A DNA stretch of 64,000 bases from Escherichia coli. GTDB taxonomy: Bacteria; Pseudomonadota; Gammaproteobacteria; Enterobacterales; Enterobacteriaceae. Under the pieces are notes generated by a model that was not told where the DNA came from, ran no database searches, and saw only the letters and a list, made by a program, of their open reading frames with translations. Below, piece after piece: positions 29,679 through 32,069 of the stretch. The stretch lies in the NCBI RefSeq assembly GCF_041886205.1, contig NZ_CP169029.1, one strand, 5' to 3'. Position numbers and translations under genes: made by a program. The number at the start of each line of letters is the position of its first letter. Position 1 is the stretch's first letter.

Positions 29679-32069
29679 ATGGCAATTAACAATACAGGCT
29701 CGCGACGATTACTCGTCACGCTAACAGCCCTTTTTGCAGCGCTTTGCGGGCTGTATCTACTCATTGGCGGAGGCTGGCTGGTCGCGATTGGCGGCTCCTG
29801 GTACTACCCTATCGCTGGTCTTGTGATGCTCGGCGTCGCCTGGATGCTGTGGCTTAGTAAACGTGCCGCGCTTTGGCTGTACGCAGCCCTGCTGCTCGGC
29901 ACCATGATTTGGGGCGTCTGGGAAGTTGGTTTCGACTTCTGGGCGCTGACTCCGCGCAGCGACATTCTGGTCTTCTTCGGCATCTGGCTGATCCTGCCGT
30001 TTGTCTGGCGTCGCCTGGTCATTCCTGCCAGCGGCGCAGTTGCCGCACTGGTGGTGGCACTGCTGATTAGCGGTGGTATCCTGACCTGGGCCGGATTTAA
30101 CGATCCGCAGGAAATCAACGGCACCTTAAGCGCCGATGCCACACCTGCGGAAGCTATCTCACCCGTTGCCGATCAGGACTGGCCTGCCTATGGTCGCAAT
30201 CAGGAAGGTCAACGCTTTTCACCTCTGAAACAAATTAACGCCGATAACGTTCACAAGCTGAAAGAAGCCTGGGTGTTCCGTACTGGCGATGTGAAGCAGC
30301 CGAACGATCCGGGTGAAATCACCAATGAAGTGACGCCGATTAAAGTGGGCGACACCCTTTACCTGTGTACCGCTCACCAGCGACTGTTTGCGCTCGATGC
30401 CGCCAGCGGCAAAGAGAAATGGCATTACGATCCTGAGCTGAAAACCAACGAGTCTTTCCAGCACGTAACCTGCCGTGGTGTCTCTTATCATGAAGCCAAA
30501 GCAGAAACCGCTTCGCCGGAAGTGATGGCGGATTGCCCGCGTCGTATCATTCTTCCGGTCAATGATGGTCGCCTTATTGCGATTAACGCTGAAAACGGCA
30601 AACTGTGCGAAACCTTCGCCAATAAAGGCGTGCTCAATCTGCAAAGCAATATGCCAGACACCAAACCGGGTCTGTATGAACCGACTTCGCCACCGATTAT
30701 CACCGATAAAACCATCGTGATGGCAGGTTCAGTTACCGATAACTTCTCAACCCGCGAAACGTCTGGCGTGATCCGTGGTTTTGATGTCAACACCGGGGAG
30801 CTGCTGTGGGCTTTTGATCCCGGCGCGAAAGATCCGAACGCAATCCCGTCTGACGAACACACCTTTACCTTTAACTCGCCAAACTCGTGGGCACCAGCGG
30901 CCTATGACGCGAAGCTGGATCTGGTGTATCTGCCGATGGGCGTGACCACGCCGGATATCTGGGGCGGTAACCGCACACCGGAACAGGAACGTTATGCCAG
31001 CTCGATTCTGGCGCTGAATGCCACTACCGGGAAACTGGCGTGGAGCTACCAGACCGTTCACCACGACCTGTGGGATATGGATCTTCCGGCACAGCCGACG
31101 CTGGCGGACATCACCGTTAATGGTCAGAAAGTGCCAGTTATTTACGCTCCGGCGAAAACCGGCAACATTTTTGTGCTCGATCGTCGTAATGGCGAACTGG
31201 TGGTTCCGGCACCGGAAAAACCGGTTCCCCAAGGTGCTGCCAAAGGCGATTACGTTACCCCTACTCAACCATTCTCGGAACTGAGCTTCCGTCCGACGAA
31301 AGATTTGAGCGGTGCGGATATGTGGGGAGCCACCATGTTTGACCAACTGGTGTGCCGCGTGATGTTCCACCAGATGCGCTATGAAGGCATTTTCACCCCG
31401 CCATCTGAACAGGGTACGCTGGTCTTCCCGGGTAACCTGGGGATGTTCGAATGGGGCGGGATTTCCGTTGATCCAAATCGTGAAGTGGCGATTGCCAACC
31501 CAATGGCACTGCCGTTTGTTTCGAAACTGATCCCGCGTGGTCCTGGCAACCCGATGGAGCAGCCGAAAGATGCCAAAGGCACGGGTACGGAATCCGGCAT
31601 TCAGCCACAGTACGGTGTACCGTATGGTGTCACGCTCAACCCGTTCCTCTCACCATTTGGTCTGCCATGTAAACAGCCAGCATGGGGTTATATCTCGGCG
31701 CTGGATCTGAAAACTAATGAAGTGGTGTGGAAGAAACGTATTGGTACGCCGCAGGACAGTATGCCGTTCCCGATGCCGGTTCCGGTGCCGTTCAATATGG
31801 GTATGCCGATGCTGGGCGGGCCAATCTCCACGGCGGGTAACGTGCTGTTTATCGCCGCTACGGCAGATAACTACCTGCGCGCTTACAACATGAGCAACGG
31901 TGAAAAACTGTGGCAGGGTCGTTTACCAGCGGGTGGTCAGGCTACGCCAATGACCTATGAAGTGAATGGTAAGCAGTATGTGGTGATCTCCGCAGGCGGT
32001 CACGGTTCATTTGGTACGAAGATGGGCGACTATATTGTGGCTTATGCGCTGCCGGATGATGTGAAGTAA
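29679..32069 (+). CDS. gcd: Membrane-bound PQQ-dependent glucose dehydrogenase
   Basis: ORF 29661..32069; start at ATG 29679 (MAINNTGSRRLL); N-terminal TM helices then PQQ beta-propeller; 796 aa. Confidence 0.95.
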   Translation: MAINNTGSRRLLVTLTALFAALCGLYLLIGGGWLVAIGGSWYYPIAGLVMLGVAWMLWLSKRAALWLYAALLLGTMIWGVWEVGFDFWALTPRSDILVFFGIWLILPFVWRRLVIPASGAVAALVVALLISGGILTWAGFNDPQEINGTLSADATPAEAISPVADQDWPAYGRNQEGQRFSPLKQINADNVHKLKEAWVFRTGDVKQPNDPGEITNEVTPIKVGDTLYLCTAHQRLFALDAASGKEKWHYDPELKTNESFQHVTCRGVSYHEAKAETASPEVMADCPRRIILPVNDGRLIAINAENGKLCETFANKGVLNLQSNMPDTKPGLYEPTSPPIITDKTIVMAGSVTDNFSTRETSGVIRGFDVNTGELLWAFDPGAKDPNAIPSDEHTFTFNSPNSWAPAAYDAKLDLVYLPMGVTTPDIWGGNRTPEQERYASSILALNATTGKLAWSYQTVHHDLWDMDLPAQPTLADITVNGQKVPVIYAPAKTGNIFVLDRRNGELVVPAPEKPVPQGAAKGDYVTPTQPFSELSFRPTKDLSGADMWGATMFDQLVCRVMFHQMRYEGIFTPPSEQGTLVFPGNLGMFEWGGISVDPNREVAIANPMALPFVSKLIPRGPGNPMEQPKDAKGTGTESGIQPQYGVPYGVTLNPFLSPFGLPCKQPAWGYISALDLKTNEVVWKKRIGTPQDSMPFPMPVPVPFNMGMPMLGGPISTAGNVLFIAATADNYLRAYNMSNGEKLWQGRLPAGGQATPMTYEVNGKQYVVISAGGHGSFGTKMGDYIVAYALPDDVK

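Follow-up and report, generated by a model that had tools for sequence, protein, structure and literature searches.

Core gcd gene of Escherichia coli, encoding a probable PQQ-scavenging glucose dehydrogenase, in a chromosomal region without PQQ biosynthesis genes

The gcd gene and its product

The 64-kb stretch of Escherichia coli DNA analysed here (64,000 nucleotides of contig NZ_CP169029.1; hereafter the window) carries gcd, the gene for membrane-bound glucose dehydrogenase, an enzyme that depends on the cofactor pyrroloquinoline quinone (PQQ), in the orthologous position between hpt and cueO:

29679..32069, + strand: gcd, membrane-bound PQQ-dependent (quinoprotein) glucose dehydrogenase, 796 amino acids

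The open reading frame (ORF) begins with an ATG at 29679, ends with a TAA at 32067-32069 and comprises 796 codons with no internal stops. Its coordinates coincide with those of the gcd coding sequence (CDS) in the RefSeq annotation of strain wlxctx60 (NZ_AP045833.1), a near-identical isolate from the faeces of a Japanese black bear. Strain wlxctx60 is the best match to the window, as none of the complete genomes searched is identical to it; the 3-kb query around gcd (hpt, gcd, cueO) matches that strain with one mismatch, and over the entire 64 kb there are 13 single-base differences (e.g. at 9805, 13089, 29855 and 62448), one of which is a synonymous change in codon 59 of gcd.

The product matches the NCBIfam model TIGR03074 (membrane-bound PQQ-dependent dehydrogenase, glucose/quinate/shikimate family) with 1192.7 bits (cut-off 832.65), residues 15-792 covering positions 2-783 of the 783 in the model, and its PQQ beta-propeller domain is complete (Pfam PF01011, positions 1-595 of 595, E = 5.8e-251). 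Kyte-Doolittle segments scoring at least 1.6 occur only at residues 10-40, 63-81, 96-116 and 111-141, which delineates an N-terminal anchor (~10-141) followed by an eight-bladed propeller (~168-768). The literature reports five helices for the anchor, a number that the Kyte-Doolittle profile is too crude to resolve. All nine of the residues expected in such an enzyme are present (H262, D354, N355, W404, T424, D466, K493, D730 and H775). The nearest relatives of known structure in the PDB are quinoprotein alcohol and methanol dehydrogenases.

Gcd of E. coli K-12 (b0124, NP_414666.1, EC 1.1.5.2) likewise has 796 residues, with the same hpt and cueO neighbours and an identical 3' spacer. The window protein, which is identical to the common RefSeq allele WP_001490818.1 and to Gcd of strain wlxctx60, is 99.7% identical to the K-12 protein. 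The two substitutions, R59L (located in the membrane anchor) and N193K, also occur in that common allele. In all respects compared, the window gene is the orthologue of K-12 gcd. At the nucleotide level the two genes are 98.7% identical; 31 of 2391 positions differ, 29 of the changes being synonymous and two non-synonymous (dN/dS 0.021). The K-12 enzyme is known to have PQQ-dependent glucose:ubiquinone oxidoreductase activity (PMC12124388; bioRxiv 10.1101/2022.06.07.495086), and by its 99.7% identity the window protein is predicted to share it.

Among 5,426 complete E. coli genomes, the gcd locus was recovered at a coverage of at least 80% in 5,423. Thus, gcd is a core E. coli gene, intact and strongly constrained by purifying selection. 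An earlier, sequence-only reading of this DNA had described the gene as full length and apparently functional, and the absence of stops, the whole-model matches, the complete set of nine residues and the low dN/dS all bear this out as far as sequence analysis allows.

Search for PQQ biosynthesis genes

Several relatives of E. coli encode the PQQ pathway. When one genome per prokaryotic species was searched with a degenerate pqqA pattern, matches were obtained in Enterobacter, Klebsiella, Raoultella, Pantoea, Erwinia, Mixta and a few others, and no match was found in Escherichia. In Enterobacter cloacae (locus L005, 888-10178), pqqA is followed by ORFs that score above the NCBIfam equivalog cut-offs for PqqB-F; the locus also contains a dipeptidase-like ORF and a convergent gene for an 819-aa TIGR03074 paralog, which shows only 40% protein identity to Gcd, and an orthologue of pdxI is located next door. 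The dipeptidase-like ORF has no NCBIfam match, and its label rests on its likeness to the dipeptidase that follows pqqE in Acinetobacter (see below). The paralog is a second membrane quinoprotein dehydrogenase and lies directly next to the pathway genes, so that Enterobacter cloacae encodes cofactor synthesis and a quinoprotein in cis. The pqqABCDEF clusters of Enterobacter and Klebsiella resemble the E. coli system in the use of PQQ by a dehydrogenase of the TIGR03074 family, but these bacteria encode the PQQ pathway itself, whereas E. coli is without such an operon in the DNA searches described below.

A second, more distant cluster is carried by the Acinetobacter variabilis plasmid pXM9F202-2-17k (17.5 kb, from chicken faeces), where a complete pqqABCDE with a dipeptidase gene occupies positions 2035-6352 beside a recombinase gene. 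pqqC was also seen on similar Acinetobacter plasmids of 18-23 kb. A contig of the metagenome-assembled genome 'Brevundimonas sp. UBA5936' contains pqq DNA 74.5% identical to that of Enterobacter cloacae over 1,560 nt, a closeness unexpected for an alphaproteobacterium, which may possibly reflect mis-binning or horizontal transfer.

None of the ~55 CDS annotated across the window (RefSeq annotation of strain wlxctx60) is a pqq biosynthesis gene. PqqA-F of Enterobacter cloacae with the associated dipeptidase, and PqqA-E of the Acinetobacter plasmid, were compared by tblastn with the window and with a further 173 kb from strain wlxctx60. There was nothing significant for PqqA-E, the best match in the window having E = 0.018 over 32 aa. 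The sole real match was that of PqqF to pqqL (21% identity, E = 8e-5), which represents generic homology of M16 peptidases. The claim of the sequence-only reading that the window is devoid of pqq genes is thus upheld by annotation and translated search alike.

At the level of whole genomes, we searched a collection of 20,395 E. coli records (28 Gb), which comprises the 5,426 complete genomes with their plasmids and includes strain wlxctx60. The 3.2-kb pqqA-E DNA of Enterobacter cloacae (blastn, word size 11) matched 0 of the 5,426 complete genomes, and the result with pqqA-E of the Acinetobacter plasmid was the same. The score needed for E ≤ 1e-3 in 28 Gb is 56 bits, and both queries detect every genuine pqq operon tested at 96-3,698 bits; between the two queries themselves, which come from different orders, the score is 171 bits. 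As further controls, the gcd paralog adjacent to Enterobacter pqqF found E. coli gcd (~68% identity over ~340 nt) in 5,424 genomes, and the pdxI orthologue beside the Enterobacter pqq cluster was found at ~71% identity in 5,209. The pdxI site of E. coli, which is syntenic with the Enterobacter pqq cluster, reads ydbA'-pdxI-ydbD and contains no pqq genes. Since the other Enterobacter flank is without NCBIfam assignment, it was not possible to delimit a clean deletion scar at this site. A Stutzerimonas locus considered as a third query was dropped, as the ORFs beside its pqqA are unlike pqqB-E and only pqqA matched.

By these DNA searches, then, no complete E. coli genome (0/5,426) carries a recognisable pqqABCDE operon of the gammaproteobacterial type. 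The finding that would have overturned the sequence-only reading, pqq genes at some other place in the genome, did not appear in any of them. pqq genes are mobile in principle, yet were found in no E. coli record searched. Given their absence from the window and from the complete genomes, Gcd is expected to be made as an apoenzyme.

PQQ supply and the status of the apoenzyme

The absence of a PQQ pathway from E. coli agrees with the literature (PMC12124388; bioRxiv 10.1101/2022.06.07.495086), as does the conclusion of Matsushita et al. (1997), in the form in which it is cited in bioRxiv 10.1101/2022.06.07.495086, that PQQ cannot be made by E. coli. Both Gcd and the soluble Asd/YliI require the cofactor (bioRxiv 10.1101/2022.06.07.495086), and under the usual conditions of laboratory culture Gcd shows no activity (PMC3688793). 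Two E. coli genes with pqq names are not biosynthetic, and a search by the name 'pqq' would mislead. The product of pqqL (44723-47506 of locus L025 in strain wlxctx60) is an M16 metallopeptidase that shares only 21% identity with PqqF, and pqqU (yncD, K-12 b1451) encodes a TonB-dependent PQQ importer; annotators should be cautioned against reading either as a PQQ biosynthesis gene. pqqU is intact in strain wlxctx60 (700 codons; locus L026, 40788-42890) and is present at a coverage of at least 80% in 5,408 of the 5,426 complete genomes. PqqU allows cells to use extracellular PQQ down to ~1 nM, at which phosphotransferase system (PTS)-deficient cells grow on glucose via Gcd (PMC12124388), and at ~30-fold higher concentrations uptake is independent of PqqU, probably proceeding via porins (bioRxiv 10.1101/2022.06.07.495086).

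The following scheme would connect these observations. PQQ released by other bacteria would be captured at nanomolar levels by the outer-membrane transporter PqqU, whose function is taken from the literature, and according to the same literature would enter through porins at higher concentrations. Gcd is predicted to consist of an N-terminal anchor and a periplasmic PQQ beta-propeller, with family membership and hydropathy established here and topology following published work. The holoenzyme would then oxidise periplasmic glucose to gluconolactone and pass the electrons to ubiquinone, and gluconate would be imported and used via the Entner-Doudoroff pathway, both as described in the literature. 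The window locus is a textbook case of the PqqU (YncD) scavenging model (Hantke & Friz 2022; Munder et al. 2025), from which it shows no difference.

It is accordingly almost certain that the window carries a core gcd whose product is, in E. coli, a PQQ-scavenging apoenzyme, and the sequence-only reading, which had Gcd as an apo-protein dependent on environmental PQQ, is supported by the controlled absence of pqq together with the literature. Several considerations weigh against this interpretation. The genome-wide tests cover a strain 13 nt from the window, as a stand-in for the window's own genome, and the wlxctx60 annotation inspected directly amounts to ~237 kb. The whole-genome pqq test operates on DNA and would miss an operon less than ~65% identical along its whole length, such as one from a distant phylum, as well as a non-homologous route. 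The nine residues checked in Gcd are presumed catalytic residues or PQQ/metal ligands taken from the mutagenesis literature; the copy of the PDB that was searched contains no membrane glucose dehydrogenase structure against which to compare the list, although this is a gap of the entire field and not a peculiarity of the gcd locus. Finally, the activity of the allele with L59 and K193 is predicted from its sequence.

A canonical pqq operon outside the window would allow the genome to make its own PQQ and render Gcd a self-sufficient holoenzyme. Close relatives carry pqqA (the six genera named above), with full operons verified, and the occurrence of pqq operons on small plasmids makes transfer conceivable; against this, two divergent pqqA-E queries with a demonstrated detection radius found nothing in 5,426 genomes with their plasmids, Escherichia is missing from the pqqA pattern matches, and the literature states that the pathway is lacking, so that we regard self-sufficiency as exceedingly improbable. 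Only slightly less improbable is the idea that gcd is a relic, stranded by the loss of PQQ synthesis and drifting towards a pseudogene. The lack of a cofactor pathway would fit such a history, as would the inactivity of Gcd in laboratory culture (PMC3688793), but a dN/dS of 0.021, the retention of gcd in 5,423 of 5,426 genomes and the preservation of all the active-site residues checked are the opposite of what drift would leave. Moreover, the high-affinity PQQ importer has been kept as a core gene, and PQQ-dependent growth has been shown experimentally (PMC12124388; bioRxiv 10.1101/2022.06.07.495086). The selection and distribution data effectively refute the relic hypothesis.

The dependence on the environment would also fall away if E. 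coli made PQQ by a cryptic, non-homologous pathway, which homology searches would not see, or if Gcd used another quinone cofactor. PQQ-producing mutants of E. coli were reportedly claimed by Biville and colleagues around 1991, which would count in favour of a cryptic route. On the other hand, Matsushita et al. (1997), as quoted in bioRxiv 10.1101/2022.06.07.495086, concluded that E. coli produces no PQQ, and pts-deficient strains growing on glucose need either added PQQ or, at nanomolar PQQ, PqqU (PMC12124388; bioRxiv 10.1101/2022.06.07.495086). We attach hardly any credence to a cryptic route, and the weight stays negligible when it is pooled with a lesser alternative, in which read-through from gcd into cueO couples glucose oxidation to the copper oxidase. 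If true, a cryptic route or substitute cofactor could be one reason for the strong selection on the apoenzyme, and the lesser alternative would mean that interference between convergent transcripts, with a Rho site antisense in cueO (see below), links glucose oxidation to expression of the copper oxidase.

With PQQ scavenging as the preferred explanation, gcd exemplifies the retention of a cofactor-dependent enzyme and its importer while synthesis of the cofactor is left to neighbours, PQQ being a "common good" of the community. The absence of pqq, the apoenzyme status of Gcd and the PqqU route have all been published and are already known, the need of E. coli to obtain PQQ for this enzyme from outside having been recognised for decades; what is added here is confirmation at population scale (pqq in 0/5,426 genomes, gcd in 5,423 and pqqU in 5,408, with a dN/dS of 0.02 for gcd).

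Sequences flanking gcd

gcd is separated from the divergent hpt by 205 bp, as in K-12, and from the convergent cueO by 201 bp. The features of the upstream side are as follows:

28937..29473, - strand: hpt, divergent upstream neighbour of gcd
29602..29617, no strand assigned: perfect CRP-consensus palindrome TGTGATGACGATCACA (TGTGA-N6-TCACA)
29606..29635, + strand: best sigma-70-like promoter match upstream of gcd, ATGACG-18-TATAAT, 10 of 12 positions matching the consensus

In the promoter scan, the region upstream of gcd taken together shows no enrichment compared with shuffled sequences. The palindrome TGTGATGACGATCACA precedes the gcd start codon by 62 nt, overlaps the -35 hexamer of the promoter-like site, and is the only perfect CRP match in the 64 kb, where 0.14 are expected and one or more occur in 13 of 100 shuffles. 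From the position of this candidate site over the -35 hexamer, repression is predicted, consistent with the down-regulation of gcd by CRP* (PMC2743635); cAMP-CRP would probably repress gcd by binding there.

On the downstream side, the spacer contains a bacterial interspersed mosaic element (BIME) made of repetitive extragenic palindromic (REP) units, and a hairpin:

32108..32141, + strand: Y-type REP unit, one mismatch to the consensus (chance expectation 0)
32142..32176, no strand assigned: BIME central motif of 35 nt, holding the IHF-consensus-like AATCAATGGATTG at 32154-32166
32177..32205, - strand: Z2-type REP unit, in inverted orientation with respect to the Y unit
32230..32251, no strand assigned: GC-rich hairpin ATGCCCGGA-GAGA-TCCGGGCAT, with a perfect 9-bp stem and a 4-nt loop
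32271..33821, - strand: cueO, convergent downstream neighbour of gcd

Like other BIME/REP elements of E. coli, this one has inverted Y and Z2 units around a short central motif between convergent genes. An exact Y/Z2 pair of the same geometry recurs at an unrelated locus downstream of fdnI (locus L025, 24552-24647), and the 3-kb gcd query hits a median of 29 places per genome. Because the pair recurs independently and the sequence is repeated at that frequency, the BIME call is sound: the Y and the Z2 REP unit are inverted with respect to each other and are repeated in the genome. The match of the Z2 unit with 0 mismatches was discarded as evidence; it is trivial, the pattern having been derived from the window, and was replaced by the test on unrelated chromosome segments. 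The central AATCAATGGATTG fits the IHF consensus WATCAANNNNTTR and represents an IHF-consensus-like candidate site as in BIMEs of the RIP/RIB type. The sequence-only reading had placed a REP/BIME cluster on the flanks of gcd; the BIME is real, but it is a single Y/Z2 pair and lies on the 3' side only.

This pair falls below the Rfam naRNA4 gathering score, and Rfam yielded nothing in the gcd flanks. It differs in this from a second BIME in the window, at 59278-59471 (mutT/yacG), which has a Y REP unit at 59325-59358 (+ strand) and a Z1 REP unit at 59392-59427 (- strand) and gives two Rfam naRNA4 matches above the gathering score. The K-12 RefSeq annotation lists no REP features at the gcd-cueO locus.

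The hairpin lies between the convergent stops, 160 nt from that of gcd (32069) and 19 nt from that of cueO (32271-32273), as the sequence-only reading had it when it called the structure shared with cueO; a role as a shared terminator is unproven, as there is no U-tract and a Rho region lies beyond. Its perfect GC-rich stem of 9 bp with a 4-nt loop, its location and the partial U-run AUAUUUCC that follows the stem on the gcd (+) strand are what an efficient bidirectional intrinsic terminator for gcd and cueO would look like. However, a stem-plus-T-run terminator scan called the hairpin on neither strand, in keeping with the lack of a canonical U-tract, and the cueO-sense (-) tail is UAAACUGA. 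The supplements of PMC7815308 list no Term-seq 3' ends for K-12 138630-138689, which corresponds to the hairpin, both genes being weakly expressed in the media used. On the gcd-sense strand, a Rho termination region has been mapped at K-12 138,442 (Rho score 3.44, p = 5e-6; Adams et al. 2021, PMC7815308, Supplementary file 2). In the window this region falls at ~32462, antisense in cueO and ~200 nt past the hairpin, so at least some gcd-sense transcription must read past the hairpin into cueO. The identity of the spacer to that of K-12 (0 of 201 positions differ) was rejected as a sign of hairpin or BIME conservation, since it is part of a 3.6-kb identical block and indicates no local constraint. 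Efficient bidirectional termination at this hairpin is therefore doubtful. The Y/Z2 BIME and the GC-rich hairpin would probably act on the convergent gcd and cueO transcripts by stabilising or partly terminating them, and by the published Rho mapping the remaining gcd-sense transcription would end inside cueO.

Chromosomal context

The identical block spans 31278-34904 (the 3' end of gcd, the spacer, cueO, yacC and the start of speE) and contains 0 differences from K-12, whereas all 31 of the gcd differences fall within 29819-31277 (1.46 kb). Divergence from K-12 is thus mosaic, which is the usual pattern, with a recombination boundary probably inside gcd. The window as a whole corresponds to the standard fhuD–lpxC region at 2-3 min on the E. 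coli chromosome, with the gene order fhuD-fhuC-fhuA-mrcB-hrpB ... panBCD-yadE-I-can-hpt-gcd-cueO-yacC-speED-acnB-lpdA-aceFE-pdhR-aroP-ampDE-nadC ... secA-secM-lpxC.

Two further Rfam matches were recorded in the window:

47890..48003, + strand: tp2 sRNA, pdhR-aceE spacer
59875..59944, - strand: STnc40, secA/mutT junction

Outside the window, hipA of strain wlxctx60 is split by a Tn3-family TnAs1 transposon that carries a methyl-accepting chemotaxis gene. Near the split hipA is a retron Ec78 (ptuAB) defence island, and lsrA of the strain is frameshifted.

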